A DNA stretch of 64,000 nt. Origin: a virus (Duplodnaviria; Heunggongvirae; Uroviricota; Caudoviricetes). Of this stretch, positions 14,986 through 63,746 are shown piece by piece (position 1 is the first letter of the stretch; every line of letters begins with the position of its first letter). Location of the stretch: IMG/VR virus record IMGVR_UViG_3300032007_003791; one strand, written 5' to 3'. Below the pieces are notes generated by a model. The model saw only the letters and a list, made by a program, of their open reading frames with translations. It did no database searches and had not been told where the DNA came from. Made by a program: the position numbers and the translations under genes.

Positions 14986-14988
14986 TAT

Positions 14989-15381
14989 ATGTATTATTTG
15001 GATAAGGACGGGTTTTATGACGAGCTCTTGGAACTGAATGGCCGCCGGCTTTCTTGTATCAGCGGTTATTGTAGTTCCATGAGTGTCCGTTGGGTTAACA
15101 TCGACGGGCGCAGGGTGTATGGTCATGAGTTGAGGATGTTCAATATGAAGGGGCATGCCTTTACGGTTTTTCTTCCCCCTGAAAAGGACGTTATTCGTGA
15201 TGCGATGGGTTTCCTTTGGAATTTTATAAGCACGAAGCCTCATTCGTCCTTGTTTAGTTTTATCTACCGTGCTGGGCCGGATAAGCGTTGTACTTTCATT
15301 ATCATGTATGATGGCAATGTGGTTTTTCCGGTTTATCATCGGTTGAATTTTAATAAGGAGGATTCTCATGGCAAGAAGTAA
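14989..15381 (+). CDS. hypothetical protein (tra-operon small protein)
   Basis: 130 aa ORF, 14-nt overlap with the next ORF. Confidence 0.4.
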   Translation: MYYLDKDGFYDELLELNGRRLSCISGYCSSMSVRWVNIDGRRVYGHELRMFNMKGHAFTVFLPPEKDVIRDAMGFLWNFISTKPHSSLFSFIYRAGPDKRCTFIIMYDGNVVFPVYHRLNFNKEDSHGKK

Positions 15382-16424: not shown

Positions 16425-16439
16425 TTTAGGGACCATCCT

Positions 16440-17683: not shown

Positions 17684-17766
17684 AACCCACGATTTCAATC
17701 GTGGGATGAAAGGGCGCAAAATTCTTGGAATTTCGGGAAATAATCGTTACATTTGTATGTAACGAA

Positions 17767-18162
17767 ATGAAGAAACTGGCACATCATATCACTTCAGTAG
17801 TGAACATCAGTTACCATATCATCTGGTGTCCAAAGTACCGTCGTAAAGTACTTGTTGATGATGTGGAGCAAAGATTAAAAGAAATACTTCCGCAAATTGC
17901 GGAAGAGATGGGCTGCAGGATTGAGACGATGGAAGTGATGCCAGATCACGTGCGTATATTCATGCGCGGGACGCCAACACTTCCTGTGCATTTGATTGTC
18001 AAGAATCTTAAAGCGGTCAGTGCGAGGATACTACGCTCAGAATTTCCTGAATTGAAACGTCGGATGAATACGATGTGGACCAGGAGTTACTATTGTGAGA
18101 CCGTCGGCAGCATTTCCGAGCAAACCATACAGAAGTACATCGAGAACCAGAAGAATGCTTAG
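17767..18162 (+). CDS. tnpA: IS200-type Y1 (HUH) transposase TnpA, with the HUH motif changed to HVR
   Basis: N-terminus [29 protein letters not shown]; catalytic Tyr region [23 protein letters not shown]; HUH position reads PDHVRIF (cgt codon). Start chosen at MKK (17767) rather than the track start. Confidence 0.8.
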
Positions 18163-19297
18163 GGCAATCAAATACGAACTCCGCCCGAACGCCACACAGC
18201 GCTCGCTCATCAACCGTACCTGCGGATGCTGCCGGTTCGTATACAACAGAGCCCTTGCATTTGCGAAAGAGAACCGTGTCAGCAATTACGACCTTGTGAA
18301 GCGGCTACCCGGTCTTAAGTCCGAGTTCGACTGGCTGAAAGAAGTGCCGTCTCAAGCCTTGCAACAAGCGGTGATAGATCTCGGTAAGGCGTTCAAGAAC
18401 AAGTGGAACGGACACAACGACTGGCCGGTGTTCCACAAAAAAGGTCGGAAGGATTCGTACCGCATCCCGGCCGGTTGCGAGATTGACTACACGCACTATA
18501 AGGTCAAGCTTGCCAAACTGGGGTGGGTCAAGTTTTACAAGGACAAACCTATAGACCAGGCGAAAATACATTCATATACTGTCAGCAGGTCGTCAACCGG
18601 ACGATACTACATATCGCTATTGTACGAAGCGCCTGACCGTTTACCTCTTGCCAACGGGAAGTCCGTCGGTATAGACGTGGGCGTCAAGGAGTTCGCCGTC
18701 TGTTCGGACGGGGTGGTGTTTGAAAACCAAAAGCACTACCGGCGTCAGATGCGGCGTCTTCGCGTCCTACAGAGGACGATGGCTCGGCGTTACGACAAAG
18801 GCAGGGATATTTACGATGCAAACGGGCGGAAAATCGGCGAGAACGGTCCTCAGTCAAGGAACTGGTACAAAGCCAAGGCGGCCGTTGCCAAATGCCATGA
18901 GAAAATCAGGAACCAGCGGAACGACTATCTCAACAAGGTAAGTTCCCTGATTGCTTCTCAATATAGCATCGTCTGTGTCGAAGACCTGAACGTCAAGGGC
19001 ATGGTGAAGAACCGCCATTTGTCAAAAGCAATATCCGACTGCGGCTGGACCGCATTCAAGACGATGCTGAAATACAAGTGCGACACGCTCATCGAGGTGG
19101 ACAGGTTCTTCGCGTCCAGCCAGACGTGCCATTGCTGCGGCTATAAGAACGTTCGTGTCAAAAACCTGTCCGTACGTGACTGGGTCTGTCCCGAATGCGG
19201 GACACACCACGACAGGGACGAAAACGCCGCACAGAACATACTCCGGGAAGGACTGTCTCGGTATTCCATAAGCGCTTCAGTGGAAGCGCTGGGATAG
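18157..19297 (+). CDS. tnpB: TnpB (OrfB; RuvC-like RNA-guided nuclease of IS605)
   Basis: ~380 aa from [12 protein letters not shown]; split RuvC (GIDVGVKEF...; [11 protein letters not shown]), C-terminal zinc finger CHCCGY...CPECG. Overlaps the tnpA 3' end. Confidence 0.9.
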
Positions 19298-19325
19298 AAC
19301 CCCACGAATTCATTCGTGGGAGCAG

Positions 19326-19760
19326 TCAGGATGCGGTGTTTTTACTGCGCCGGGCCCCGTGAAAGGGATTCTCAGAGCGTCTCTGAGTACCGAACGGGAA
19401 GCGCAGATATGAGAAAGCGTCGGGTCCCGGGGAGCGTGCGGCGGAGTGTTCCTCCGCCGCAAGTCTCAACGGGTGACGCGAATTGGGGAAAAGTCGGGCC
19501 CCGTGAAAGCAAGCGATGAAAATCTGATACGAATAGTATCAGAGGGTCATCGCAAAATTGAACGGGTGACGAGTGGGATGGGTGAAGGAAGTGGGTGTTT
19601 GTTTTATGGCTGAGAGGGAGGTCGGGGGCACTGAAAAGAAATGGGGAAGGAACCGTAGTCCCCTCCCCCGTATAAGGATACTTGGATGTTGTCTGTTTAG
19701 GATTTAACCACTTTTTGCGTTTACCCGGTAAGGGGCTGACTGCAATTTGAGGTTGAAAAC
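19326..19760. other. G-skewed gene-free tract 1 (right part) / likely TnpB guide-flank region
   Basis: No ORF; repeated gggccccgtgaaag boxes at ~19352 and ~19496. Composition matches 16440-17683. Confidence 0.5.
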
Positions 19761-22133: not shown

Positions 22134-23054
22134 TTATTTGATGATTGTGTTATTTTCGTTCCAAGAGATAGAGATATTGCCGGAAACAAGGCACTTGAAC
22201 GTGTTAATCCGGCGGTTCTCAATGTCGTTTTCGCAGACTTGCTCCGCCACTTTTGAACCGATATTCCAGTTGACGATAACCGGTAATTTCGCCGGAATGA
22301 GCACATACCGTACAAATCCGAGCGTAAGAGGGTTTTCAATGCAGGTAATCTGGCCGCCCAGGTATTCAATCAAGTTCTCGAAAAAGCTATTGTACTCTGC
22401 GTCCGAAAGAATCATTTTCGCCGCCTCGTCGTTGTTTTGAGGGTTTACGGAAAAAGAGTCTTTCGGAATGATATTGGAAACGCGCACCTCGTCGCAAGCT
22501 CCTTTCAGCGTTTCGTAGAACCGCATAAAAGAATCCAGGTTATCGTGATTCTCACGCCAGATATTCGTGTTTACACGGACCTTTATGCCGTTATCGTGCG
22601 CAATATCGTAGATTTCTTTCAGCCTTGAACGTAAGATAAAGTCCTCGTTATGATAGGAAATGTTCAGCCCGTAAAGACCGGCACGAATCATGTCGATTAA
22701 AAGCTGGTTAGTAAGCGCTATTCCGTTGGTGGTTAAGCGCACCTTTTGAATGCCGGCGTCGTAGAGCCCGGTTATCATTTCGCAAATATCCGGGTGGAGA
22801 GTAGGCTCGCCGCCAAGAATGATTGCTTCCTTGATGCCGTATTTTTCAACCGCCTCTTTAACTGTCCTGCGCATCTTTTTTACGGACAGTTGAAGCGTAT
22901 GGTCGGTTTCGCTATTGATGCAATAAGGGCAAGCCCTATTACATTTATTTGTTGCCACTACCGATAAATAGGCGTTGTTCGATACAAGACCTATTTCGGT
23001 AGGATAATAAACGTTTTGCTTGAAGATTTCAAGCGAGTCTTTTTGAATGATCAT
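22134..23054 (-). CDS. radical SAM enzyme (CxxxCxxC; MoaA/activase-like, specific function unknown)
   Basis: 306 aa; CNRACPYC cluster, GGEPTL motif, TTNG motif. Confidence 0.75.
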   Translation of the reverse strand: MIIQKDSLEIFKQNVYYPTEIGLVSNNAYLSVVATNKCNRACPYCINSETDHTLQLSVKKMRRTVKEAVEKYGIKEAIILGGEPTLHPDICEMITGLYDAGIQKVRLTTNGIALTNQLLIDMIRAGLYGLNISYHNEDFILRSRLKEIYDIAHDNGIKVRVNTNIWRENHDNLDSFMRFYETLKGACDEVRVSNIIPKDSFSVNPQNNDEAAKMILSDAEYNSFFENLIEYLGGQITCIENPLTLGFVRYVLIPAKLPVIVNWNIGSKVAEQVCENDIENRRINTFKCLVSGNISISWNENNTIIK

Positions 23055-31594: not shown

Positions 31595-31894
31595 TATCGT
31601 TGGCTGTTTGATTTGATTGTGAAGGTTGTGTTGGTTCGCTATCTTGCGTGGATTTTACAGCCTGGGAGGCATGCCGACCAATTGGGCTGTAAAATCTTCG
31701 CAAAGAAAAGCGGACCAACTTCTTCCGAGCAAGGGTTCCTGGCGGAACACGACCACAAGGCCCCCTTGTGGGGCCGAAGCCCGTAGCCCGTAGGGCAAGG
31801 GGGCTGCTGCCTGGTGGAGGTTCCGTCAGGAAGCGGAAGCTTGCCCTTGCGAGGAAGAACCGTTGCTTGTTGTATCATACTGAGATTGTCTCAT

Positions 31895-35688: not shown

Positions 35689-35734
35689 TGCTTTCTATTT
35701 TATAATTAAGGTTGTTATTTCTGTTTTTAGATTT

Positions 35735-35968
35735 TTTTTGTTGTAGCTTCGCGTGATTTCCCCACGCGGACGCTTGCGTCCATAAGTGGGTGAAATCTAA
35801 GCAAGAAGGCACAACAAAAAATTCCCTTTCTGCAAGGGTTTTCCATAAAACACGACCACGAGGCTCCTTGGGGGCCGAAGCCCGCAGCCCGCAGGGCAAG
35901 GGGGCTGCTGCCTGGTGGAGGTTTTTGGAAAACGAGCGTAGCGAGCTCGCCACTTGCGGAAAGGGAAT
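35735..35968 (-). repeat. intergenic repeat family A, copy 1 (terminator + promoter + structured leader cassette)
   Basis: ~235 bp matching 46982-47213 and 54993-55229. Hairpins cgcgtg/cacgcg, ggacgc-tt-gcgtcc, ccctt-tctgc-aaggg flanked by A- and T-tracts, ggctcc/ggggcc, gagctc palindrome. Confidence 0.7.
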
Positions 35969-37227: not shown

Positions 37228-39072
37228 TTATGCTGTGTAAGAGCGTCGTACGGTTTTCATTACGATATTTTTCACGACAGTCGAGATTCCTTTGACAAGG
37301 TTCTGGATGCTTGCCATATCAATCCATGTATCATACATGGCTGCAAGGTGGTCCTTGGTCAAGTTGCTGTCGACTGAGATTCCGATTACTTCCATTCCCT
37401 GTTGTTTTGCTTCATCCACGGCTTTCCGTACATTCGATAACGGACCGTTAGGATAACCGTCGGAGATAACGAGAAGGACTGCCTTGCTTTTGCTTTTCTG
37501 CCGGACACGGCTGACAACTTCCTGGATAGCTTCGGCTGTCGGAGTGCCTGATATGGCCTCGATGCTTCCAAGGGTGTACTTATCGTAAGGTTTGCCCCAT
37601 TCGCGGTAAGCGAAAAGCGCATTCAGGTTATAGTCCGTGTATCCGTAGATATTCAGTTCCACATTGGGGATATTACCGACAGCCTCGTTGATGAGGATTG
37701 CGGCCTGGCGTGCGAGCACGAATTTGCGACCATTCATTGACCCGCTTTCATCAATGAGAATGCTGAGGTTCACCCTGTCAGGGCGTGTCACTTCCTTGCG
37801 GCAATAGACGTTCTTGTTTCCCTGTACGGCTTCGGCAATCTTGTTGCCGTCAAGCATACCTCGTTTGAGGCCTGTTTGAACGGAAGTGATTTCCGCTCCG
37901 TGGGTAATAAGGGACCTTTGTACGGTGGGAATGAATTTCTTGACTGCCCGCAGGTCGGACATGTAAATAGCCTTGTTGGGCTCTTTCTTGAGGATAATGG
38001 CATTTTTGCCTATTTCCAGTTGACCGTCCATTTCTTTTGCAAGAAGGTGGTCGTTTTCTTTCAGGTCTTTGGACATGTCATCCTCGGAGATTGTGGTATC
38101 TGCGGACTTGATATTCTTTTCGATTGCATCAAGAATCTTTTCAAGGATTTCTTCCAACTCTTCATCACTGAGTTTGCGGCTGCTGCTTCCTTTTCCGTTG
38201 CCGGAACCGGCTTGCTTACCACTGCCTTGGTCGTCGCCTTCTTCGCCTTCGCCTTCGCCTTGGCCCTGACCCTCGTCGTCTTCGTCCATGTTGTCTTCCG
38301 CGTACTGCTTGAGCAGTTCGTAGATTTTCTTGGCCGTTTCGTAGGTCTCTTCGGTGTTCTCCGGATACGGGGTGAGGATTTCCCGTGTTTCGAGAAGGAG
38401 GTCCGCAAAGTCGTGGACTTCTTCCTGGGTGAGGGTTGCCGGATAACGAACGAGTTTCAGGATGGCGTTGAACGCCTTGGTGAGGTCGTTCTGGTTTTGA
38501 GGCATGTCGTCCTGTACCTTACCGAAATAGAAGTATTTCGTTGCCTTCAGGAAGTTTGCAAGTCCGGGGTTCTCTTCGCCGGTATGGCGTTCAATCATTT
38601 CGTCTTCCACTACATTGTGAATGGCGTGCAAAATCCGTGACTTATCATTTTGTCCGATAGTGAAGTCGGTGTACAAGAGGTGTGAACCTTCGTGCACGGC
38701 AGCCCCTATGAAAACATCGAGTCTCTTGCCAAGTGGAAGCGACTCGTCGTCGAACACCTTGGTTGCCACCCAGAGGGTGTGGCTGTCGGTTGCGTTCCGT
38801 TCGGCGTCCACCTTCACGGTTACCTTGTACGGGTGTCCCATGGAAATGACCATATTACGGGCAATGCTGAGCGCATTCTTGTAAAGGTCCCTGGTGGTGG
38901 CGGGGTTCAGGATTATCGACGAATAGGCGGAATCTTCCGGAAGGGTGTCTTCCCAGCCAAGGCGGTCGGTGGTGCGGATACGCACGTAGGTCTCACCGTC
39001 CCTTTCAAGCCAGTCCTTTTCGAGAAGGGCAACCTTCTCTTCAATGGTCATATTTTTGTAGTTCTGTTTCAT
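37228..39072 (-). CDS. VWA-domain protein (CobT/NorD-like partner of the MoxR ATPase)
   Basis: 614 aa; C-terminal VWA with MIDAS DESGSM; central acidic/Gly-rich linker; N-terminal HEGSH (HExxH-like). Confidence 0.75.
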   Translation of the reverse strand: MKQNYKNMTIEEKVALLEKDWLERDGETYVRIRTTDRLGWEDTLPEDSAYSSIILNPATTRDLYKNALSIARNMVISMGHPYKVTVKVDAERNATDSHTLWVATKVFDDESLPLGKRLDVFIGAAVHEGSHLLYTDFTIGQNDKSRILHAIHNVVEDEMIERHTGEENPGLANFLKATKYFYFGKVQDDMPQNQNDLTKAFNAILKLVRYPATLTQEEVHDFADLLLETREILTPYPENTEETYETAKKIYELLKQYAEDNMDEDDEGQGQGEGEGEEGDDQGSGKQAGSGNGKGSSSRKLSDEELEEILEKILDAIEKNIKSADTTISEDDMSKDLKENDHLLAKEMDGQLEIGKNAIILKKEPNKAIYMSDLRAVKKFIPTVQRSLITHGAEITSVQTGLKRGMLDGNKIAEAVQGNKNVYCRKEVTRPDRVNLSILIDESGSMNGRKFVLARQAAILINEAVGNIPNVELNIYGYTDYNLNALFAYREWGKPYDKYTLGSIEAISGTPTAEAIQEVVSRVRQKSKSKAVLLVISDGYPNGPLSNVRKAVDEAKQQGMEVIGISVDSNLTKDHLAAMYDTWIDMASIQNLVKGISTVVKNIVMKTVRRSYTA

Positions 39073-39075
39073 GGT

Positions 39076-40287
39076 TTATCGTGCTAAAATCATATTGTGA
39101 ACGATAGCGCGTTCGCCTTCGATGTCCGTCCCTTCGAAGAGTTCGAGGTAGATTGTCTCCATTGCGTATCTTGCGGTGCGTCCGCATTCTACATATCTTG
39201 CGCAGCGCATCGTCTCACGCGTGGTTACCGTATTGGAAATGTTCCCGTCGGTGTAATTCTTGCGAATCTTGTTCGCAACGCTGACGATATTCACTGCGTC
39301 CGAGTTCATCAGGTGCGGGTACTTGCTCATTAGCAGGTTTATTTCTTCCTGTTCCGGAAGATACTCGAGTGTCCTTTCAAGGAACCTGTCCCGAAGGGCC
39401 TTGTCGAGCGGGTTGGTGAGGTACTCGGGTCCTTCGTTGATTGTCGCTATGAAGCGGCATTTGGGGTGGACCTTGATTTCTCTCTGACCCTTGCTGGTTG
39501 CCAGTTCGCAGAACATCGTCTTTCGCCAGTCCAGAATGGACATGAGGCTTGTTGCAGCGTCCTTGGACGCTCTGTTGAGTTCGTCGAGGACGATAATGCA
39601 TTCGGTCTGGATTTGTTTTGCGAAGCGTGCCTGGTCGTAGACTGACTCTCCGTTCTCGATACGGTGTACACCCTGCATCTGAGCCACGGCGTCGAACATA
39701 GTCGCCATGTCGTAGATATAGACTGGTACATTGAAGACGGTGCCAAGTAAAGTAGCCAGTGTCGTCTTACCTGTTCCGGCGGGGCCTTTAAGGAGAATGT
39801 TTTCTCCACAGGTAAGGTCCATTATCGTGTCTAACCACTTGTCGTGGTTGATGTAGAACCCGTCCTTGTCGATTGTCGGCGTTGCGAAGTTTGGATTTGC
39901 CTGAATTTTGTCAATCAGGCGGTTTCCTGTTGACTTTACTTTCGTCTGCTGGCCGTCGGCGTTGAAGTTGTTGTCCACTTTGTATTTGAGCCACTCATTT
40001 TTCATTTCGTCGGATGGGCTATTATTCAGAGGTACCTGCTGGGTGGTTTCAACCACCTTTACGTCGTCCCCGATTGCGTAGAACGGCTGGGTGCCTGTTG
40101 TGGCTCTTAACTCACAGACGTCAGAGACGAATATCGTTCCGAGGGGGAAATTCTTCCGAATATCGGAAGGTCCCTGGCAGTTGAGGTCAGGGTTGATGGG
40201 CTGTCCGGCGCTTGTTTTCTGATTCGGAAGAGGACGGAAGCGGACTTTCTTGGTTTCGTCTTGGACGGATTTGAAAAAGTAGAACAT
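39076..40287 (-). CDS. MoxR/CbbQ-family AAA+ ATPase
   Basis: 403 aa; Walker A LLKGPAGTGKTT. Separated from the VWA gene by a 4-nt gap (operon). Confidence 0.8.
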   Translation of the reverse strand: MFYFFKSVQDETKKVRFRPLPNQKTSAGQPINPDLNCQGPSDIRKNFPLGTIFVSDVCELRATTGTQPFYAIGDDVKVVETTQQVPLNNSPSDEMKNEWLKYKVDNNFNADGQQTKVKSTGNRLIDKIQANPNFATPTIDKDGFYINHDKWLDTIMDLTCGENILLKGPAGTGKTTLATLLGTVFNVPVYIYDMATMFDAVAQMQGVHRIENGESVYDQARFAKQIQTECIIVLDELNRASKDAATSLMSILDWRKTMFCELATSKGQREIKVHPKCRFIATINEGPEYLTNPLDKALRDRFLERTLEYLPEQEEINLLMSKYPHLMNSDAVNIVSVANKIRKNYTDGNISNTVTTRETMRCARYVECGRTARYAMETIYLELFEGTDIEGERAIVHNMILAR

Positions 40288-40289
40288 AG

Positions 40290-41477
40290 TGTCTTTTTAT
40301 TTATTTGTCGTTTGTTTCTTGGGTTGGGGCGTTAACTTTGTGTAGGAATTTTCCCACCATGTAGAGAGCTCCGCGAACGGAGTGGTGGGGAAATTTCGGA
40401 ACAATAGTAACACCCTAACCCTCCAATGCGGCAAGCACGAAGGGGAAAAAAAATGACCACAAGGACCACTCGTGGTCCGCAGCCCGCAAGGGGCGCCTTC
40501 CACTCGTGGAAGGCGATGGTCCGTTATTTTTTCCACGAGTGCGCGTGCATTGGAAGGGAAAAGAAATTGCCGTCAGGCTTTTTGTAGGCGTGCTGTTTTG
40601 TATCGGTGGTCACGGTTTATGCGGTACGGGCGGTATGGGCGTGGTTCAGTGGTTAGGATAGGGAATATAGTTTGGTGTGAAATTGGGATTGGCGGATATT
40701 TGTCCGAATTTGGTTGAATTGTCCGTTTACAGGTTGCTCTGGGTGGTTTGGGGCTAATCCGGGGCGCTCTCTCCAGGCTCTGAGCGCCCCAGGTCCGGGA
40801 ATGAATCGGGGTCGTGTCGTGATTTTGGATTCTTCCAAAATCACGATGTTGTTCGAACCCTTCCGGGGGAGGGGCCCTGGAAGGGAAGGACTGTGGCAGG
40901 GTGCTTTTTAGTTCTGTTGCAGGTGTTTTAATGAGCCTGTCCGTTTTACTGCGCATGACGGAATCCGCTGGGCCCCTTGGAAACCGTCTTGAGGCTCATA
41001 GCGTCAAGACGGCAAGGGAAAGCGGATAAGTGGGTGGAAGGGCGTTCAGGGCCCCCCGCGTAGCATTTCCTGAATAGGGCCTGTTCAGGAAATGTGGGAG
41101 CAAGGGGAAGGAACGCCGTGGGTCTCGTGCGTTGGCAAGGCACCCCGCAGGGCCCCTGTTCCCGATAGGGTAGGGGCCGCCAGTTGTATCCTGTAAGGTA
41201 AACTGGCTGCTCCGTTCAGGGAAAGGCGGGGTGCCGTGTGGGGGTTTCTTCTCTTTCTGGGCCCCATGTGCGAAAAGACGATCACGGACGCCTGAAGGGG
41301 CGGACGGGATCGTGGATTTGTGGGTGGATTGGGGAATGAAAGAGAGGAATGGAAGAATGTCCTTTTCTTGGGAAAAAGGGTGGGTGTGGGGTGGTGGTAC
41401 CGTACCACTCGCATGAGTGGTGCGGTACCACCGCTTAGGTGTCCAATAAAAAAGGGAGGTCCTGTATGGAACTTCCC
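40290..41477. other. G-skewed gene-free tract 2 (includes repeat family B copy 1)
   Basis: 1.2 kb without a credible ORF. GGGCCCC boxes at ~40870, 40970, 41050, 41150, 41262. Hairpins at 40815-40845, 40985-41012, 41062-41092. G-tract gggtgggtgtggggtgg followed by an 18-bp hairpin at 41388-41428. Confidence 0.6.
40360..40578. repeat. intergenic repeat family B, copy 1
   Basis: Aligns with 63520-63746: gggaaatttcggaacaa...ccaatgc.g.aagcacga.gg..aaaaaatgacc.caagg.cc...cgcagcccg..aggggcgc...cgagtgcgc...ttggaaggg..aaga.attgccgt.aggc. Closing stem ccaatgc/gcattgg. Confidence 0.65.
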
Positions 41478-42227
41478 TTATAAATTTTTTTTACTTTTTG
41501 ATTTTTTCCGTGTGCTGGTGGACTTGAAAGAATTATATATTTCAAGGCTTGCTTTTTGTTTTGTATACAATTCAACTTGATGAATAATATCTAACTTGAT
41601 AACATCCCAATCTTTTCCAAGTAGACATTTGGGGTTTGGCTCTAAATCAGCTTTTGAAAAATCAACAAGAGCATCTAAAATCTTATCTTCCTCGTGTACC
41701 CATGGCTGCCATTTTTTGTGAAGAGACATTAATTTTTCAAACGGATAAATTTCCAATAGTTTATCAATATCCCACCAATCTTTTTTACGTCCACCGTTAT
41801 TGATAGCTTCCATTTTCATGGCTGCTATCTGATTGACTGATTCAAATCTTATTCCCTCTATGAGCTCTGGACCAGAAATAAATTGGTCAGTATACATAAG
41901 GTCAAGTTTGACAGCATTTTCTTTATTCAGGCCGACATAGTACATTCTACCAAAACCGACAATCCCGGATTTATCCGGACTATCAAAATATGGAAACATT
42001 CTTTGCAATTCATTTTCCAATTTTACAAAGTCTATGCTTCCGTATTCAGCATCCGTAAATAAATCAATATCATCTGAACAACGATGACCAAATCTTAAGC
42101 TAAGATTGGTACCTCCAACAAGGTTAAAGTTATTAAAAACCGGATTTTTCATCAAGGCATTAAGTGTATTGATAAGAACCGGTTTTACAGTTTCATAATG
42201 AAGAAGTTCGTCCTTAATATTTGTCAT
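41478..42227 (-). CDS. AbiEii/AbiGii-family nucleotidyltransferase toxin (DUF1814)
   Basis: 249 aa; N-terminal NTase motif LVGGTNLSLRFGHRCSDDIDLF; AT-rich island. Confidence 0.75.
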   Translation of the reverse strand: MTNIKDELLHYETVKPVLINTLNALMKNPVFNNFNLVGGTNLSLRFGHRCSDDIDLFTDAEYGSIDFVKLENELQRMFPYFDSPDKSGIVGFGRMYYVGLNKENAVKLDLMYTDQFISGPELIEGIRFESVNQIAAMKMEAINNGGRKKDWWDIDKLLEIYPFEKLMSLHKKWQPWVHEEDKILDALVDFSKADLEPNPKCLLGKDWDVIKLDIIHQVELYTKQKASLEIYNSFKSTSTRKKSKSKKNL

Positions 42228-42651
42228 AAAATTTGTTTATAGAATTGATTTCTTCAGCGTTTCCTCTTTCTCTAACCCTGTTTATAATAAAATCCTTATT
42301 TAAAGTCCAATCCAAAGAATTAATATCAATGTCCCAAAATACAACTTTCCTAATATTGGGATATGTTTGGGAAGGAACTTTAATCTGTTTTTTTTGTTGG
42401 AGAAGATAATAAGTTTGTATTATCGCGAAGAAACCATGCTCAAAATGTAATGCATTATCAAGTTTTAATGAAAGAGGAATTGAAATTAGTCTTTTTCCCT
42501 TGATAATTGCATTTAAAGTTTGGTAATGCTCTCCAATATTGGCTGCAAGTTCCCGTTGTGTCATATTGCCATTTTTTAGGCAAGACACAATAATTTTTCC
42601 TGGAGCAATACCTTTATATGCATTTATCTTATTCACGTTGTAAAGGTACAA
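42214..42651 (-). CDS. HTH (XRE-like) putative antitoxin/regulator paired with AbiEii
   Basis: 145 aa; HTH MTQRELAANIGEHYQTLNAIIKGKR; 14-nt overlap with the toxin gene. Confidence 0.55.
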   Translation of the reverse strand: MYLYNVNKINAYKGIAPGKIIVSCLKNGNMTQRELAANIGEHYQTLNAIIKGKRLISIPLSLKLDNALHFEHGFFAIIQTYYLLQQKKQIKVPSQTYPNIRKVVFWDIDINSLDWTLNKDFIINRVRERGNAEEINSINKFYDKY

Positions 42652-42757
42652 AAAAACATAGAAATAAACAAATTTGTTTATTATACAGTTTCCAGAAGGG
42701 TGGTCCCGTTTTCGGGTCCGCCCTTCTGGAAACTGTAAATTGGAAATATAGCTGTTT

Positions 42758-43321
42758 TTAGCTGTTCACGAGTTCATAGACATCAACGAACCAGGGGCAG
42801 TCGCCCTGGGTGATGGTTTCTTCGTCTTTAGGATATTTCCCGAAGACGGAAATTTTTACGACATAGCGGCCACCTTCAAGGAAGGTGACGTTTTTCTCGT
42901 TTTCGAGGTCTTCGAAGAGTTCGTCATTGTCCGGATCGTAGAAGGCATAGTTGTTTTTGCCTACGGCTTTCTTTTTCCAGTCATTGAGGACGGTTTCCGG
43001 TCCGCGCATCGAGGCGTCGTAGCAGTCGCTGTAGTTGTTGATATAGGCGACATGCTTATACTGGGCTTTGATTGCCTTGACTTCTTTGATAGTATGAAGT
43101 CCCCAGTAGGGTGTTCGTTCCGGGACCATGCTGCGGGTGACCATCTGTCCTTTCTTGCCGATGGCATAGAAGATGGGATAGAGGGCGTACTCCATGCACG
43201 AATGGCTTCCTTCGAAGCACTTGTATCCTCCGAAGTATCCTTCGTAGGTGCGTTCCCCAAGAGTGACCTGTACTCTCTGGCCGTATTGCAGATTGAGGTT
43301 GATGAATTCTAATGCGTCCAT
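42758..43321 (-). CDS. hypothetical protein
   Basis: 187 aa ORF. Confidence 0.45.
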   Translation of the reverse strand: MDALEFINLNLQYGQRVQVTLGERTYEGYFGGYKCFEGSHSCMEYALYPIFYAIGKKGQMVTRSMVPERTPYWGLHTIKEVKAIKAQYKHVAYINNYSDCYDASMRGPETVLNDWKKKAVGKNNYAFYDPDNDELFEDLENEKNVTFLEGGRYVVKISVFGKYPKDEETITQGDCPWFVDVYELVNS

Positions 43322-46783: not shown

Positions 46784-46981
46784 GTTATATGTGTTATGTT
46801 GATTATGTCTGTTATTGACCAGGGTCTTTTTTCCTGGCGATATGGTATTTGGCCTTGGGGATTTTCTCAATGGCTTTTGTCAGGACGCGGTATGCGTCGC
46901 TTTCGTGAAAGAATGCTCCGAACTGGTGCATCTCCTGTTGTTTTTCATTTTCAATGATCCACATGTTGATAAGAATTGTTT

Positions 46982-47213
46982 TTGTGTTGTACCTTCGCGT
47001 GATTTCACCACGTGGACGCTCGCGTCCATAAGTGGATGAAATCTAAGCAAGAAGGCACTACACAAAATCCCTTTCTGCAAGGGTTTTTCAGGTAATTACG
47101 ACCACGAGGCCCCCTTGTGGGGCCGAAGCCCTCGCCAGGGGCGAGGGGGCTACTGCCTGGTGGAGAATTCCTGAAAAAAGAGCTCAACGAGCTCACCACT
47201 TGCGGAAAGGGAA
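46982..47213 (-). repeat. intergenic repeat family A, copy 2
   Basis: Near-identical blocks to copies 1 and 3 (cgcgtgatttc.ccacg.g, ggacgc..gcgtcc, ataagtgg.tgaaatctaagcaagaaggcac, ccctttctgcaagggtttt, ctgcctggtggag, gagctcaacgagctc, cacttgcggaaaggga). Confidence 0.7.
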
Positions 47214-47589: not shown

Positions 47590-47676
47590 CAATTTCTTTG
47601 TTGCGAACATCGCGCTGTCTGTGTTTTGACGTACTCCCGCCGGCTAAAGCCGGGGGATTCTTAGATGCTAACGCAT
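47590..47676 (-). ncRNA. putative TnpB RE / omegaRNA 3' region of the solo TnpB
   Basis: Hairpin ccggc-taaa-gccgg within gtactcccgccggctaaagccgggggat (47636-47656), 20-40 nt past the tnpB stop. Same tactcccg-hairpin-gggga layout as the IscB RE. Confidence 0.45.
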
Positions 47677-48803
47677 CAGCCTGCAGTCGCTACGCTCGTG
47701 CAGGTCTTACAAATGCTCTCTAACTCGGCGACGCCCCGTCGATAGATATTCATGGCTGCATGTGCATCACGGAGATGATGCTGTCCACAGACCGGACAGG
47801 TCCAGTCCCTGTCACTTAACTGCAGCCCGGTGTTCTTGTATCCGCAGTCACAGAGTTTCGAGGAAGGGTACCACCGGTCAATCTTGTGGACGGTGGTGCC
47901 ATACTTCGAAGCGATGTATCCCAGCACTTTGACAAAGCCTGTCCAGCCGAGGTCGTTGACTTTCCGTCCCCAATGTTTCATCTTGGCCATGCCGGAGATA
48001 CCGAGGTCCTCGATAAACAGATAATCATACTCCCTGCAGAGCATATGCGCTGTCTTATAGAACCAGTCCGTCCGCTTATTAGCCAGTTCGGCATAGACAT
48101 GGTTTAGTTGTCGGCGATACGCCCAATAATGTGCAGAACCCTTTTCGGACTTAGACAGCAAGCGCTGCCACTTCTGCACCTTGCGAAGAAGTTTCTTATA
48201 GAACTGCGGCGCTTCTATTTCCCGTCCGTCCGAGAAGGTCATGAAGGTCTTGAGTCCGAAGTCTATACCCGCGGATGCACCTGTGTGTGACTTTCCGCAG
48301 GGCTTGGGTTTCGCATCCGTTACGACGAGGATAAACCAGTCGCCGTGTGAACGGAATACCCGGACAATCTTGACCTTGCCCTCCCAGTCCCGTGACTTGA
48401 AGAATTTGAAGCGTTTGGATATCTTGTTGATGATGAATTCGTTGCCGTATAGCTTATACCCGTCTTGTTTGAAGACGAACGAGGTGAAATCCTTTGCTTT
48501 TCTGAACTTCGGCGGACGTTTGTTCGTATGGTTGAAAAACAGATGGAAAGCATTGTCCTGTCGCTGCAAAATTTCCTGTACGGTCTGTGCGCCAAGTCTT
48601 GTTCTTGCAACATGCATTTTAAAGTGGTGTTGTATTCTTTTGCAGCTGATGTATTTTACTTCCCACCCAAAAGTCTTTGCCAGGGAGTAATAGCGTTTTT
48701 GCAGGGCGAGAGCATGATTCCAAACAAACGCAGCCTCAGACATCATGTGTTCAAGGGCGATGAGTTTCTTGCTATGGCAGAGTTTGTACTTGTTTGAAAT
48801 CAT
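47676..48803 (-). CDS. tnpB: TnpB (solo; no tnpA)
   Basis: 375 aa; RuvC-I GIDFGLKTF, RuvC-II FIEDLGISGM, zinc finger CDCGY...CPVCG, RuvC-III DAHAAMNI. Confidence 0.85.
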   Translation of the reverse strand: MISNKYKLCHSKKLIALEHMMSEAAFVWNHALALQKRYYSLAKTFGWEVKYISCKRIQHHFKMHVARTRLGAQTVQEILQRQDNAFHLFFNHTNKRPPKFRKAKDFTSFVFKQDGYKLYGNEFIINKISKRFKFFKSRDWEGKVKIVRVFRSHGDWFILVVTDAKPKPCGKSHTGASAGIDFGLKTFMTFSDGREIEAPQFYKKLLRKVQKWQRLLSKSEKGSAHYWAYRRQLNHVYAELANKRTDWFYKTAHMLCREYDYLFIEDLGISGMAKMKHWGRKVNDLGWTGFVKVLGYIASKYGTTVHKIDRWYPSSKLCDCGYKNTGLQLSDRDWTCPVCGQHHLRDAHAAMNIYRRGVAELESICKTCTSVATAG

Positions 48804-49512
48804 ACGTTATTCATCTGACACAAAGTCAAGGTCAATGCTTTTTCTGTGTCCTATCTGGAGGGACAGGGCGGTTCCCCCGACCAGAAGGTAGTCTTTTAGT
48901 GCTGGTTCGGAGCTCAGGCGTTTCAGCAGTTCCAACGTGTAGGGTTCTACTGTGGTATAATGGAGCATTTCAGGTCTTTGTCTTTTAGATTGAAAGCAAA
49001 TTTCACGAAGTTTTTATCTACATCGGACATTTGTGGGATTTGTCGGATGAGTTTGATAATCTTTCTTGGTCCTCCATAGAGCTGCAGCAGGGCGTATCAG
49101 TCGTTCCTGTTTCCGAGTTCAATGACCCTTCGGGTGACAGTTATGGAAATGTTGTTCCATTGGTTTTCAGTGAATCCGTCAGTGTCGTATTCCCAGAGGA
49201 GTTTCTTTGGGATGACTTGATGTGGATATGTTTTCCAATCGTTGAAGAGCATGACAGATTGTCGTATTATTTGTTGCAAATATAGTGTTTCTTGTCCAAT
49301 TCAAAAAATGTGCTGGTTGTTCCTACTGTCATATCAGTAATAAAAAGTGCGACCTTTTTGCACTTTATCTTCAAAAATTTCCGAGATAAAGTACGTTTAG
49401 CTCGCACTTTTTTAGGATAATAAGTGGGAATCCTCCCTGGTTTTAACCGGGAGATGAAAGCGTCTTTGATTTTTGAGAGGTGATATATTTCACCACGGTC
49501 TTTTCCGATACG

Positions 49513-49537
49513 GATGCTCCCTGTCTTTAGACGGGAG
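49513..49537 (-). repeat. solo copy of the IscB-element LE hairpin sequence
   Basis: atgctccctgtctttagacgggagt is identical over 25 nt to 4945-4969; flanking sequence differs. Lies directly after the stop of ORF 49557..49853. Confidence 0.7.
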
Positions 49538-49556
49538 TATATCACGTCTGTGTAGT

Positions 49557-54992: not shown

Positions 54993-55229
54993 TTTTTGTT
55001 GTACCTTCGCGTGATTTCCCCACGCGTGGAAGCTTGCTTCCCAAAGTGGGTGAAATCTAAGCAAGAAGGCACTACAAAAAATCCCTTTCTGCAAGGGTTT
55101 TTCAGGTAATTACGACCACGAGGCCCCCTTTGGGGCCGAAGCCCTCGCCACCTTGGGGCGAGGGGGCTACTGCCTGGTGGAGAATTCCTGAAAAAAGAGC
55201 TCAACGAGCTCACCACTTGCGGAAAGGGA
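54993..55229 (-). repeat. intergenic repeat family A, copy 3
   Basis: Same conserved blocks as copies 1 and 2. The ggaCgc..gcGtcc hairpin is replaced by ggaAgc-tt-gcTtcc, a compensatory double change. Confidence 0.7.
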
Positions 55230-62765: not shown

Positions 62766-63485
62766 TTAAATGATGTCTTTTAGGAATATTTCAATATCGA
62801 AGTAGTCTTTTTCATTGGCGAGTTGAAAGAAGATTTTCCTTATCTTTTTCAAGGCTTTATCCATTATTTGTCTCGTCCTTTCTTTTGTCAGTCCGAAATA
62901 AAATCCTATATCTTCGAAGCATTCCGGCATGATGTGTCTTTCTTCGTTTCCGAAATAGTACCATTCGATGATAGCTGCTTCCCGGTCAGAAAGGAAATAG
63001 TGAATGTATCGGAGAAGTTGTTCTTTGTCTACGGATTGTTCCGTCTCTTGCGGAAACATTTCTTCATCAAACTGTATGAAAGAGCATTTGTTCTCGATGA
63101 TACTGAGTTTGCTTGCAGCTCCTACTTGTCCCAGCATCTTGAAATACATACCGTTTTGAAAATTCGCCTGACGGTAATCGTCTTCATCTTGAAGGGAGAG
63201 GATGTGCTTCGCGAGAGCCGAAAGACAAATCTGATAGTACTCTTCCTTTCTATTGCCAAGGCCGTAGTAGTCACAATAGATTTCGGAAATATACTTTGCA
63301 TACGGAAGGTTGTTCTCCGCAAGGAGGTTCTGCAACCTTTTTCTTTCTTCCCCTTGGGCACTTTGAAGACGCTTGAGGAGTTTGCGGTTCCTGGACCGCA
63401 TTCCCCTCAGTCCGTATTTTTCTTTGTAGCCCGGTACAAGGGATGAGTAATAAACCCAATCGGTTTTGACAACAGTTGTAGGCAT
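62766..63485 (-). CDS. sigma-70-family (ECF-like) RNA polymerase sigma factor
   Basis: Start trimmed to MPTTVVKTD; C-terminal region-4-like HTH ERTRQIMDKALKKIRK. Confidence 0.5.
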   Translation of the reverse strand: MPTTVVKTDWVYYSSLVPGYKEKYGLRGMRSRNRKLLKRLQSAQGEERKRLQNLLAENNLPYAKYISEIYCDYYGLGNRKEEYYQICLSALAKHILSLQDEDDYRQANFQNGMYFKMLGQVGAASKLSIIENKCSFIQFDEEMFPQETEQSVDKEQLLRYIHYFLSDREAAIIEWYYFGNEERHIMPECFEDIGFYFGLTKERTRQIMDKALKKIRKIFFQLANEKDYFDIEIFLKDII

Positions 63486-63519
63486 AGATGCAGTAACTTT
63501 GTAAAGAAATTTACCCCTG

Positions 63520-63746
63520 CGCAGTGAGCTTGCGAACGAAGTCTGGGGGAAATTTCGGAACAAAATGTACTGCATCGGACTTCCAATGCAGTAAGCACGA
63601 CGGAAAGAAAAAATGACCGCAAGGCCCCTTGTGGGGCCGCAGCCCGTCAGGGGCGCAGGACACGGCTCTGCCGTGGACGGCGACGGCCCGTTATTTTGTT
63701 TCCGAGTGCGCAGCGCGTTGGAAGGGGGAAGACATTGCCGTTAGGC
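63520..63746. repeat. intergenic repeat family B, copy 2
   Basis: See copy 1 (40360-40578). The closing stem is partly compensated (ccaatgcag.../...gcgcgttgg). Confidence 0.65.

Follow-up and report, generated by a model that had tools for sequence, protein, structure and literature searches.

The Frpo/ssi promoters of F-like and IncI1 plasmids (Masai & Arai 1997; PMC11541004; PMC12672017) are long, imperfect, intergenic hairpins on the template (transferred) strand, located just upstream of leading-region operons; the promoter boxes re-form within their stems and contain mismatches. This class of single-stranded DNA (ssDNA) promoters includes several groups without mutual sequence homology, and they have been proposed to supply primers for the complementary strand as well (PMC12672017). 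Leading-region genes are oriented for transcription from the transferred (T) strand (PMC11541004). The sso sites of rolling-circle plasmids and ICEBs1, which are required for turning transferred ssDNA into duplex, are orientation-specific and redundant, and depend on structure over sequence (PMC4595007); known sso are 150-350 nt long and belong to homologous types (ssoA, ssoU, ssoT, ssoW) with conserved motifs. STAXI (Rfam RF01728; PMC2864571) is a small structured unit repeated in tandem two to three times that adjoins SSB, topoisomerase, antirestriction and integrase genes on mobile DNA, and its authors left open whether it acts as RNA or as ssDNA (PMC2864571). Phages, plasmids and transposons also carry HEARO/omega RNA, GOLLD and ROOL, each of them one RNA whose multi-helix fold is fixed and in which many nucleotides are conserved. 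Integron attC sites are recognised in single-stranded form.

The window analysed here, a stretch of 64,000 nucleotides (IMG/VR record IMGVR_UViG_3300032007_003791), holds two tracts, tract 1 and tract 2 (40290-41477), that share traits with several of these systems. At the left end of tract 2 lies a hairpin (the repeat-B hairpin) that is long, imperfect, intergenic and on the template strand, just upstream of an operon, as in Frpo/ssi; its box, partly paired in the stem, may correspond to their rebuilt and mismatched boxes. Unlike Frpo/ssi, its box is the Bacteroidota -7 TAnnTTTG and not a sigma-70 -35/-10 pair, its -33 element lies outside the stem, it measures ~100 nt vs ~300 nt and it has no sequence similarity to them. 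The likeness is limited to this hairpin; the GGGNCCC modules elsewhere in the tract lack promoter boxes as well as the motifs of all known ssi and sso. The array of these modules is, like sso, an orientation-specific non-coding region with several stem-loops in redundant copies, but the tracts span 0.9-5.5 kb, the repeated module is a different one, and the phylum is another. With STAXI the array shares the tandem repetition of a small structured unit; STAXI, however, consists of pseudoknots with UUCG loops in Enterobacterales, whereas the units of the array are long hairpins that have bulges and a GGGN/AA internal loop. Like HEARO, GOLLD and ROOL, the array has a G-rich sense strand and a secondary structure conserved over hundreds of nucleotides, but it has a variable number of modules and tolerates an insertion sequence (IS), and the models of these RNAs gave no match in it. 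As with attC sites, the hairpins form a strand-specific array with variable stems, conserved flanks and extrahelical bases. The array lacks R''/R' core sites (RYYYAAC / GTTRRRY) and cassettes, its conserved flanks are only GGGNCCC and GGGAA, and no ORFs lie between the units; an integron array was rejected on these grounds. No integron-type integrase was seen among the screened ORFs.

Searches for described relatives were negative. In Rfam 15 at the gathering threshold, the only hit in the whole window was HEARO at 4746-4977; at E<=10 tract 2 gave only chance miRNA-like hairpins far below threshold, tract 1 gave nothing at E<=1, and five related loci gave nothing. The array thus matches no described RNA family, including HEARO, STAXI, GOLLD, ROOL, radC and the Bacteroides/Bacteroidales motifs. 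A DNA similarity search with both tracts against 72,556 plasmid and 50,697 phage records returned no match, which argues against close homology to a known sso/ssi type. Other classes were rejected as well. CRISPR arrays and type III toxin-antitoxin RNA repeats would consist of near-identical regular direct repeats, but the modules differ in sequence and length, TRF reported only three trivial 8-10-nt repeats, and no direct-repeat family lies inside the tract. REP/BIME or MITE copies do not apply, as the module stems are unrelated and share no common palindromic or terminal sequence, and ARAGORN found no tRNA-like units.

Composition and coding status of tract 2

Tract 2 is non-coding, G-skewed and hairpin-rich, as an earlier note on this DNA had described it. 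Its GC content is 0.543 and its GC skew +0.256 by composition count, and the skew is +0.303 in the unique part (40580-41440) vs +0.124 for the whole window. The tract is a composite of an intergenic cassette (40290-40578) and a G-rich array of plus-strand stem-loops (40580-41440), with the following features.

40321-40421, plus strand: repeat-B hairpin, a ~100-nt imperfect stem-loop (inverted repeat I1, 39-nt arms at 40321-40359 and 40383-40421)
40446-40541, minus strand: repeat-B terminator cluster, with hairpins 40455-40477, 40480-40493 and 40494-40515 between A8 and T6 runs
40580-40760, plus strand: GT-rich spacer with TGTCCG motifs at 40701 and 40720, ending in the box GGTTG-N4-GGGTGGTTTGGGG (40741-40753)
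40761-40885, plus strand: three stem-loops after the box (inverted repeats I14, I4, I11; minimum-energy fold), at 40761-40790, 40817-40846 (13 perfect pairs) and 40858-40885 (GGGGCCC in the loop)
40817-40846, plus strand: hairpin TCGTGATTTTGGA/TCCAAAATCACGA (inverted-repeat search)
40963-41027, plus strand: module 1, ATCCGCT/GGGC/CCCTTG...hairpin...CAAGGG/AA/AGCGGAT (descriptor score 13; DNA fold -23.2 kcal/mol, z = -6.5)
40984-41012, plus strand: hairpin CCGTCTTGA.../...TCAAGACGG (inverted-repeat search)
41041-41117, plus strand: module 2, GGCGTTC/AGGG/CCCC...15-bp hairpin...GGGG/AAG/GAACGCC (descriptor scan; z = -4.3)
41064-41094, plus strand: hairpin CATTTCCTGAATAGG/CCTGTTCAGGAAATG (inverted-repeat search)
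41139-41235, plus strand: module 3, GGCACCCCGC/AGGGC/CCCTG...two hairpins...CAGGG/AAAG/GCGGGGTGCC (descriptor scan; z = -5.0)
41246-41349, plus strand: module 4, TTCTTCTCTTTC/TGGG/CCCCA...hairpin...TGGGG/AAT/GAAAGAGAGGAA (descriptor scan; z = -5.2; inverted repeat I9)
41370-41434, plus strand: G-quadruplex motif (41370-41391) abutting a near-perfect hairpin (41393-41432, I2)
41393-41410/41415-41432, plus strand: hairpin with 18-nt arms (inverted-repeat search)
41450-41497, minus strand: AbiEii intrinsic terminator, hairpin 41454-41477, with a U-run in minus sense and a T-run on the plus side too

The hairpins had been noted before with coordinates 2-5 nt off, and the GGGCCCC boxes are present at 40970, 41049, 41150 and 41259, while the one at 40871 reads GGGGCCC instead. 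Seven of the 11 plus-strand GGGCCCC occurrences in the 64 kb fall inside the two tracts (an enrichment of ~47-fold), and GGGGCCC occurs only 3 times on that strand. The G-run is real and located at 41370-41391 (GGGAAAAAGGGTGGGTGTGGGG), not at 41366-41385 as first given, but it is a single instance, the only (G3+N1-7)x3 G3+ motif on either strand of the window. Folding of the 941-nt core gave z = -10.2 for the plus and -9.2 for the minus strand.

The flanking genes are, by Pfam, those named in the earlier note: a MoxR-type AAA+ protein (39076-40287), a VWA protein (37228-39072) and AbiEii (41478-42227). A link of the VWA protein to Ro/Y-RNA was rejected, as there is no TROVE match and the pair looks NorQ/NorD- or CbbQ/CbbO-like. 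The terminator at 41450-41497 belongs to the low-GC AbiE island (AbiEii/HTH-DUF6922 by Pfam; GC 0.355 over 42001-43000) and is separate from the array. This island adjoins tract 2, and a low-GC ORF is embedded in the tract of a related element, L132. The public pipeline calls zero genes in tract 2, in agreement with the gene-free claim, and Pfam found nothing significant for its 8 longest ORFs. The ORFs in the L132 tract have neither codon-position bias nor third-position excess, and carry frame-breaking indels relative to another related element, L139. A decayed protein-coding gene was rejected, on the missing Pfam similarity of the 8 ORFs and the lack of codon-periodic substitution between L132 and L139.

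Module architecture and its relatives

The four tandem modules (40963-41349) share one common architecture: an outer stem that varies in sequence, a 5' bulge of 3-5 nt with GGG(N) at its end, a CCC...GGG stem around one or two inner hairpins that also vary, a 3' AA(A)(G) bulge and the closing outer strand. Spacers of 10-21 nt, free of ORFs, separate the units. Folded singly, modules are stable under DNA energy parameters (z = -2.5 to -6.5); G.T makes up 8.4% of the module pairs and some loops are GNRA. The GGGN/AA loop is no K-turn, since tandem G.A pairs are absent on inspection. A descriptor scan for this architecture gave 8 matches on the plus strand and 0 on the minus strand, from 17 palindromic GGGCCC cores each. 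On the plus strand a score of 11 was reached in 8 of 17 cores and a score of 13 in 5 of 17, as compared to 15 and 3 of 380 cores in 0.9 Mb of unrelated control DNA. The box GGTTG-N4-GGGTGGTTTGGGG is similarly one-sided, with 3 copies on the plus strand vs 0.22 expected and 0 on the minus strand. The array stem-loops are meaningful on the plus strand only.

Tract 1 has the same architecture.

16425-17650, plus strand: tract 1, left part, with a box at 16484, TGTCCG motifs and modules 16649-16752 and 16799-16870
19335-19760, plus strand: tract 1, right part, past the IS200/IS605 element, with module 19345-19406 and a second GGGCCCCGTGAAAG unit at 19496

A looser module starts from the GGGCCCC at 16959 (folded as 16940-17060). 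The vocabulary that the two tracts were said to share holds for the architecture, but the tracts are not alignable to each other beyond a 45-nt box region (80% identity), to which self-similarity is limited; the module stems are unrelated in sequence. Both tracts lie on the same absolute strand, and their flanking genes are oppositely oriented. The IS200/IS605 element (genes by Pfam) splits tract 1 and leaves modules intact on both sides, and the same IS type lies inverted, at another position, in the tract of the relative L135; like the low-GC AbiE island and the low-GC ORF of L132, this is consistent with the earlier idea of an insertion platform.

Downstream of the orthologous leader operon the same module was found in five related elements, in tracts of up to ~5.5 kb and with all matches on the same strand, and kilobase-scale non-coding DNA is kept at this position in 5/5 relatives. 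Sub-tracts begin with the box in tract 1, L007, L132, L133 and L134; a GC-rich hairpin of variable sequence follows it in every relative, and L131, a 97%-identical relative, has additional tandem TTTGTCCGAA copies in the spacer. The relatives' tracts are not alignable by blastn, with a flanking protein 76-79% identical. For an orthologous module compared in 5 elements, the unpaired flanks are conserved, and the outer stems are completely different yet complementary. Module 16649 differs between the window and L135 by 10 substitutions and 2 indel columns, among them 2 compensatory double changes, 2 G.T-to-A-T changes and 1 paired insertion. G.T pairs, which the other strand would turn into A.C mismatches, fix the plus strand; one outer stem of L132 has 3 of them. 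Between L132 and L139, one-sided changes keep pairing in 49% (plus) vs 31% (minus), a comparison confounded by composition and mis-predicted pairs, and paired sites change at 4.5-4.8% vs 6.8-7.2% for unpaired sites, a modest difference. Overall divergence from L135 is ~7%, near the third-codon-position rate of the neighbouring gene (8%). Taken together, the primary sequence turns over and the pairing is kept by compensatory changes. This supports the earlier view that the tracts are not junk: one strand-specific stem-loop architecture keeps its position and shape, other elements have related tracts, and coding remnants were not found.

Further relatives were few. A scan of metagenome contigs with a 27-base pattern gave one true relative, L139; no MoxR relatives were found in IMG/VR, where a 17-base module pattern gave three chance matches. 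A genome-contig scan with GGTTG-N3-4-GGGTGGTTWGGGG was too unspecific (120+ chance matches, none related to the window), and its loci served as negative controls. The predicted structure of a linked 211-aa protein had a mean pLDDT of 45 and was unusable.

Host element, transferred strand and repeat-B hairpin

Judged by its genes, the host is a Bacteroidota-type conjugative element. The first protein matches appeared phage-like, but a phage origin was overturned by the relaxase, T4CP, MobC, TopoIII and PcfJ, and the relatives add TraO and DUF3575. An inverted-repeat and iteron region at 13.1-13.5 kb (~10 TTATAA repeats at 13360-13500, upstream of the leader operon) has minus-strand genes for the relaxase, a MobC-like protein, SSB and T4CP to its left and, on the plus strand, the leader operon with its ParA-like gene to its right. 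The leader operon ends in a strong plus-strand terminator at 16430-16460, after which tract 1, 3 kb from the inferred oriT, has no consensus promoter. Beyond the leader operon follow ~45 kb of minus-strand genes (methyltransferases, DprA, RadC, RNase H, ComM-like, toxin-antitoxin). From gene order we infer an oriT near 13.1-13.5 kb with the relaxase operon pointing left, and by this layout the plus strand is therefore probably the T strand, template of the ~45-kb minus-strand leading-region block. As the host is conjugative and the folded strand is probably the transferred one, ssDNA is at least as likely a working form as RNA.

Repeat B, reported earlier, was recovered at 40333-40578 and 63494-63746 with 74% identity; these first 250 nt are, however, not part of the array but an operon-boundary cassette. 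The foot of the repeat-B hairpin is 34 nt from the MoxR start, with the hairpin on the template strand immediately upstream of the operon. Its gene-proximal arm carries the invariant Bacteroidota -7 box TAACTTTG at 40332-40339, with TTTG at 40311-40314, and full TTTG-N-TAnnTTTG matches on the plus strand of the window number only 2 (40311-40340 and the leader-operon promoter at 13320). In relatives the hairpin copies are again on the template strand, and 24-172 nt separate them from the operon starts downstream. The -7 box TA(A/C)CTTTG is invariant across copies, its T and TTTG paired and its middle bases in a bubble; the -33 TTTG is outside the stem and not conserved. Compensatory pairs amount to 14/43 among 3 copies and 14/22 among 8 homogeneous copies from 4 elements, and those flanking the -7 box are upstream of any transcript starting from that box. 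RNAalifold found no consensus for 12 heterogeneous copies and one for the 8 homogeneous copies. A template-strand hairpin that includes its own promoter box just upstream of an operon is the published signature of ssDNA promoters (PMC12672017), and by this analogy the repeat-B hairpin is a candidate Frpo-like promoter for the MoxR-VWA operon. The claim rests on covariation and not on the count of promoter boxes embedded in hairpins, which was dropped as evidence since 18% of control boxes pass this loose test. The excess of TAnnTTTG on the template strand (61 vs 11) was also dropped, being about what base composition predicts.

Read on the minus strand, the neighbouring terminator cluster is an intrinsic terminator for the upstream operon (stem 40477-40455, then ATTTTTTTT; inverted repeats I7, I10, I12 and I13). 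It is a copy of repeat family D4, with others at 31749, 47098, 55112 and 63612.

Working form of the array

Our leading reading, held tentatively and at somewhat below an even chance, is that the array works as folded single-stranded T-strand DNA of the leading region. The plus strand would enter the recipient single-stranded and then fold. The repeat-B hairpin would rebuild a duplex -7 box with a bubble, where RNA polymerase may start on ssDNA and round the loop into MoxR-VWA, in the manner of Frpo in F-like plasmids. The module array would be an orientation-specific, structure-defined single-strand initiation platform (ssi/sso-like), its modules possibly offering duplex landmarks at fixed points of the SSB-coated DNA, from which the complementary strand would be primed. 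Priming at tract 1 would turn the leader operon double-stranded early and so make it expressible early; of the proposed steps, priming is the least supported. In its favour we count the strand specificity, the pairing kept through sequence change, the layout that makes the plus strand the probable T strand, the covarying hairpin with its own promoter box, the likeness to sso, the stability of the modules under DNA energy parameters and the common absolute strand of both tracts. Against this reading we count that the G.T pairs and GNRA loops would suit RNA at least as well; that known ssi, sso and Frpo measure 100-350 nt, as compared to the kilobase scale of the tracts; that promoter boxes and ssi/sso motifs are missing from the modules and the -33 TTTG lies outside the stem; and that the gap between paired and unpaired rates is modest and the L135 divergence near that of third codon positions.

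The main rival, possible if rather doubtful, is that the array is transcribed from the plus strand of the duplex element into one or several structured ncRNAs of a new family, whose shared asymmetric loop (5'-GGGN / 3'-AA(A)G, C-G-closed) would make a multivalent scaffold or sponge for an element or host protein. Strand specificity, covariation and G.U tolerance fit this equally well, several loops are GNRA, the unpaired G-rich linkers are conserved, and large ncRNAs are known on mobile elements, with HEARO in the same window. The consensus promoter at 40311-40340 points into tract 2, the other match being the bona fide leader-operon promoter; a plus-strand T-run follows the hairpin 41454-41477, the L133 tract contains a canonical plus-strand terminator, and one of the boxes in L132, and one in L134, is preceded by a -7 box 45 nt upstream. 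However, transcription from 40311-40340 would run into the repeat-B hairpins and a T-run first, and the second repeat-B copy has the same promoter but no modules after it. Terminator-like sites are not enriched in tract 2 (3 found vs 3.1 expected), and tract 1 follows the leader-operon terminator with no consensus promoter of its own. Most complex RNAs look different from these helices of 12-22 near-perfect pairs, in which little tertiary-type sequence is conserved, and no Rfam family matches even at E = 1-10. One large ncRNA, as the earlier note suggested among other roles, is improbable in tract 1, given that the IS divides the array there and leaves whole modules to its left and right.

That the tracts are functionless, a permissive operon-boundary spacer gathering hairpins, insertion scars and IS in which shared motifs reflect descent and mutation bias, we regard as improbable. 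The near-synonymous divergence from L135 and the frequent indels would suit a spacer, as would insertions that arose independently three times (an IS605 each in the window and in L135, besides low-GC ORFs or islands) and the lack of tract 2 upstream of MoxR in the 58-59% relatives L002, L003 and L006. But neutral DNA would not keep one strand-specific, compensated architecture across unalignable elements, nor kilobase-scale non-coding DNA at the same position in all five relatives, and the module z-scores and control rates speak against chance.

Even less probable is a protein-binding array in double-stranded DNA, either a centromere of the adjacent ParA-like system or a landing pad for a regulator, with the GGGCCC palindromes, the TGTCCG repeats and the GGTTTG-N7-GGTTTG box as its sites. 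In every relative tract 1 immediately follows the ParA-like operon, as sopC follows its par operon in F, TGTCCG pairs are 18 nt apart with copy numbers that vary between near-identical relatives, and GGGCCC is palindromic. Duplex binding sites, however, need no covarying flanking stems; the motif lacks symmetry and keeps to one strand (GGGCCCC 11 vs GGGGCCC 3), the TTATAA repeats upstream of the operon are a better iteron candidate, and tract 2 is 24 kb from the par-like genes.

The least probable reading, to which we give only a very small chance, is that RNA of the minus strand does the work. It would form an extended 3' UTR, structured or rich in C, and end or insulate transcription, first through Rho that loads on the CA-rich stretch and then through the intrinsic terminator 40477-40455; tract 2 would separate MoxR from the upstream operon, and tract 1 the leader operon from the gene block. 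The minus-strand genes flanking tract 2 make read-through plausible, the minus strand of 40580-40740 is CA-rich and G-poor, two transcription directions converge at tract 1, and the window modules fold almost as well on the minus strand; but wobble pairs and conserved bulges are on the plus strand, where the L132 stem and the pairing kept by one-sided changes also place the structure, and AbiEii's own terminator (41454-41477) precedes the array.

Gut Bacteroidota swap resistance and fitness genes mainly via conjugative elements, and to our knowledge essentially nothing is known of how the incoming strand is expressed and converted to duplex in these elements; our literature search found no paper naming both ssDNA promoters and Bacteroid*. 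Returning to folded T-strand DNA, one might, with considerable doubt, extend this reading to a new two-part ssDNA signal system on the T strand of Bacteroidota conjugative elements. Hairpin promoters with a phylum-specific -7 box would fire leading-region operons before a complementary strand exists, and kilobase-scale arrays of GGGN-bulge modules would organise or prime the conversion of the incoming strand. If the ssDNA reading is true, it offers testable signals for both steps, a -7-box hairpin promoter and a repeated stem-loop module that fills 1-5 kb of an otherwise gene-dense element. The two-part system, if true, would be the first ssDNA-promoter class outside the sigma-70 consensus together with a new class of structured DNA element, and if instead the RNA reading is true, the array would be a new modular family of large ncRNAs on mobile DNA, absent from Rfam. 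Under either reading, the motif can serve the annotation of metagenomic Bacteroidota elements as a marker of leading regions and of strand polarity.

Anatomy of tract 2 and its modules

The gene-free tract at 40290-41477 (tract 2) was described in an earlier note as a single homogeneous tract, functional and related to a second such tract (tract 1, 16425-17650 and 19335-19760). Our results support function and relatedness, but not homogeneity, as the tract is composed of several distinct parts.

Features of tract 2 and its borders
39076-40287, minus strand: MoxR-type AAA+ gene, its start bordering the tract
40290-40578: repeat B, a cassette 74% identical to 63494-63746
40321-40359 and 40383-40421: arms of a ~100-nt imperfect hairpin, left half of repeat B
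40446-40541: right half of repeat B, a cluster of three hairpins flanked by an A-run and a T-run, an intrinsic terminator as read on the minus strand
40580-40760: GT-rich spacer with TGTCCG motifs and a terminal box, GGGTGGTTTGGGG
40761-40885: three stem-loops
40963-41349: four tandem modules
41370-41434: G-run and near-perfect hairpin
41450-41497: terminator of the low-GC AbiE island
41478-42227, minus strand: AbiEii toxin gene, its stop bordering the tract

All individual features listed in the note were recovered within a few bases: the boxes (GGGCCCC at 40970, 41049, 41150 and 41259, GGGGCCC at 40871), three named hairpins, a hairpin with 18-nt arms, and a G-quadruplex-like run, which we place at 41370-41391 and which is the sole canonical G-quadruplex motif that either strand of the 64 kb holds. 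The G-skew was also evident (GC skew +0.26 in tract 2 and +0.30 in its unique part, vs +0.12 in the window), and the public pipeline called zero genes in the tract, in line with its description as gene-free; its eight longest ORFs had no significant Pfam match. Screening of the tract gave zero tRNAs, tandem or CRISPR-like repeats and attC cores. Compared with shuffled sequence, the core folds much more strongly on both strands (z = -10.2 and -9.2).

The AbiEii/HTH-DUF6922 toxin-antitoxin pair (41478-42651) forms a low-GC island with its own terminator (GC 0.355 at 42001-43000, vs 0.50 in the window), and looks like a recent insertion beside tract 2. At 40690-40712 a 97% identical relative (L131) has three or four additional tandem TTTGTCCGAA copies, and in tract 1 the GTCCG motif comes in pairs with an 18-nt spacing that flank a small hairpin (GTCCGCGAA.G..TC..TGTCCGTT). 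By their sequence, the GTCCG/TTTGTCCGAA repeats look like a putative protein-binding repeat of varying copy number.

Folding each GGGCCCC neighbourhood gave one common architecture, the module. From 5' to 3' it runs through one side of a variable outer stem (5-12 bp), (N)GGG(N) left unpaired, a second stem opening with CCC, one or two variable hairpins, the matching ...GGG, AA(A)(G), likewise unpaired, and the strand that closes the outer stem. When this architecture was coded as a descriptor and both window strands were scanned, the + strand gave 8 matches and the minus strand 0; the GGGCCC core is palindromic, so the same 17 cores were available on both strands.

Module matches, all on the + strand
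Tract 1: 16649-16752, 16799-16870, 19345-19406
Tract 2: 40963-41027, 41041-41117, 41139-41235, 41246-41349; weak, 40866-40909

Among the + strand cores of the window, 8 of 17 reached score 11 and 5 of 17 score 13, compared with 15 and 3 of 380 cores in a control of 0.9 Mb unrelated DNA. Shuffling tract 2 around its cores left a mean of 0.68 matches vs the observed 5. With DNA parameters the modules keep the same shapes, at -14 to -31 kcal/mol. No Rfam family matched the array, and the modules have no REP- or MITE-type sequence in common.

Conjugation context and conservation

The earlier note overlooked the conjugation context of tract 2. The encoded conjugation genes (relaxase, coupling protein, MobC-like) rule out a phage identity for the window, which also has a topoisomerase III gene.

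Features of the host element
Left of 13.1 kb, minus strand: YWFCY/TraG-type coupling protein, MobA/VirD2-type relaxase, MobC-like protein, SSB
13100-13510: segment from which the mob and leader operons diverge, with four inverted repeats and some ten copies of TTATAA
Right of 13100-13510, + strand: leader operon, driven by a consensus Bacteroidota promoter at 13320-13351
14224-14985, + strand: ParA-like gene inside the leader operon
16430-16460: leader-operon terminator, directly followed by the start of tract 1
17650-19335, + strand: IS200/IS605 splitting tract 1 (tnpA 17768-18160, tnpB 18095-19297)

The closest plasmid homologues of the relaxase are 'MobB' proteins of Bacteroides, Phocaeicola, Parabacteroides and Prevotella. 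The inverted repeats at 13100-13510 include CCCTCCC...GGGAGGG and TCTGGCAG...CTGCCAGA, and the region is likely a putative oriT plus iteron/operator (regulatory) region. From ~19.7 kb to 64 kb all genes are on the minus strand, among them those for DNA methyltransferases, DprA, RadC, PcfJ, MoxR/VWA, RNase H, a ComM-like ATPase and toxin-antitoxin systems. The arrangement is a leading-region layout. From this layout and the published orientation of leading-region genes, which suits transcription from the transferred strand (PMC11541004), we infer that the + strand is the transferred (T) strand.

Several other loci of the element were also recorded. A 377-aa ORF without family match (14236-15369, minus) overlaps the ParA-like gene and the following leader-operon genes, and is probably spurious. 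An IscB gene (RRXRR + HNH, 434 aa) and a full-length HEARO/omega RNA (4746-4977, 112.6 bits; the pair at 3353-4977, minus) are flanked by the genes for topoisomerase III and the coupling protein. The 25 nt at 49514-49538 are identical to the first HEARO RNA hairpin (4946-4970), and a 76% copy at 49430-49454 adjoins a second TnpB gene (47676-48803, minus); these stretches may represent either a fragment of HEARO or a common omega-RNA hairpin. Within the mobilisation operon, between coupling protein and relaxase, is an NrdD-like anaerobic ribonucleotide reductase (8503-10845, minus; PHROG E = 2.6e-196), unusual cargo for that position, for which the radical-SAM gene at 22134-23054 could be the activase.

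Homologues of the 211-aa last leader-operon gene occur in four clusters only (76-98% identity), and on all four contigs the gene is followed by a G-skewed non-coding tract that shares both the modules and their strand with the window. The metagenome contig L139 extends one lineage (L132) through a tract of ~5.5 kb into a minus-strand gene block like that of the window. ORFs called in the L132 tract show frame-breaking indels against L139 and no third-position excess. The exception is a low-GC (0.40) 137-aa ORF (L132 6494-6907, L139 3514-3927), which, unlike the others, has zero indels and a mild third-position excess and is therefore probably a real inserted gene.

At the DNA level only the 98% relative, L135, aligns to the window (87% identity). 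Compared between the two, module 16649 shows two double changes of the compensatory kind, G.T turned into A-T at two pairs and an inserted T-A pair, against one disruptive change. One module can be traced as orthologous through its conserved unpaired flanks GTGCGTTGGGAGGG ... CCGTGCGGGGA, and its outer stem differs by element (CTCACGC/GCGTGAG, AACACCT/GGGTGTT, AATACCT/AGGTGTT, CGGACGC/GCGTCCG, ACGCCGG/CTGGCGT). Wobble pairs fall on the + strand, three of them in a single outer stem of L132.

A candidate promoter in the repeat-B hairpin

The gene-proximal arm of the repeat-B hairpin contains the Bacteroidota -7 box TAACTTTG on the + strand, and with TTTG 18 nt upstream it is one of just two full promoter matches on that strand of the window. 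Eight repeat-B-type hairpins from four elements share a single consensus fold, with compensatory change in 14 of 22 pairs; all carry an invariant box, TA(A/C)CTTTG, in which T and TTTG are paired and the middle bases form a bubble. These hairpins occupy the template strand and hold the box in the arm nearer the gene; in the relatives, an operon starts 24-172 nt downstream. A looser count of boxes in hairpins lacks specificity. As the box-flanking pairs are upstream of any transcript starting there, the conserved fold cannot be that of the transcript.

This geometry agrees with published ssDNA promoters, some classes of which show no sequence homology and which may also be a source of primers (PMC12672017). 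The repeat-B hairpin is a candidate ssDNA promoter; its -33 element, however, lies outside the stem. On single-stranded template DNA the proximal arm would provide the non-template box, and RNA polymerase would read the distal arm toward the loop, round it and into the gene. The terminator cluster in the other half of repeat B belongs to a repeat family present at five operon boundaries.

A second intergenic cassette family (35733-35966, 46979-47212, 54993-55229 and 31749-31822), with 81-100% identity across 140-230 nt, combines a ~100-nt hairpin of its own (GTACCTTCGCGTGATTTCCCCAC ... GTGGGTGAAATCTAAGCAAGAAGGCAC) with a GGCCCC..GGGGCC terminator hairpin after it, and may be a further hairpin-promoter class. 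The gene that immediately follows the second repeat-B hairpin (62766-63575, minus) codes for a protein with sigma-70 region 4 (E = 2.4e-8). Behind the candidate ssDNA promoter, this element-encoded sigma-like factor could drive element-specific promoters.

Folded DNA or RNA

We tentatively favour an array that works as folded T-strand DNA. Gene orientation and the candidate hairpin promoter point independently to the + strand as the functional single strand, and both tracts lie on the same absolute strand despite oppositely pointing flanking genes. This reading is further supported by the lack of a consensus promoter in tract 1 after a strong terminator, by the long, near-perfect helices and by the likeness to known single-strand origins (sso), which are structure-defined, orientation-specific and redundant (PMC4595007).

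A new structured RNA is a somewhat less probable explanation. It is consistent with the + strand consensus promoter directed into tract 2, some + strand terminators in related tracts, the share of wobble pairs (8.4%), GNRA in some loops, the kept unpaired linkers and a tract length far beyond any known ssi or sso. The modules of tract 1 resume past the IS200/IS605 (19345-19580), whose end hairpins match near 17690 and 19301; since the array tolerates this insertion, one contiguous functional RNA is unlikely. In L135 (2560-2627) an IS of this type adjoins the G-rich box with its right end, inverted and at a different site; the two insertions into this non-coding tract are independent. A neutral spacer, a duplex protein-binding array and a minus-strand RNA share the remaining probability.

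The closest analogues of tract 2 are Frpo/ssi promoters, single-strand origins and the tandem STAXI motif, whose authors likewise left RNA vs ssDNA undecided (PMC2864571). The analysis bears out tract 2 as a real structured element, conserved, strand-specific and previously undescribed, which may act as folded T-strand DNA.
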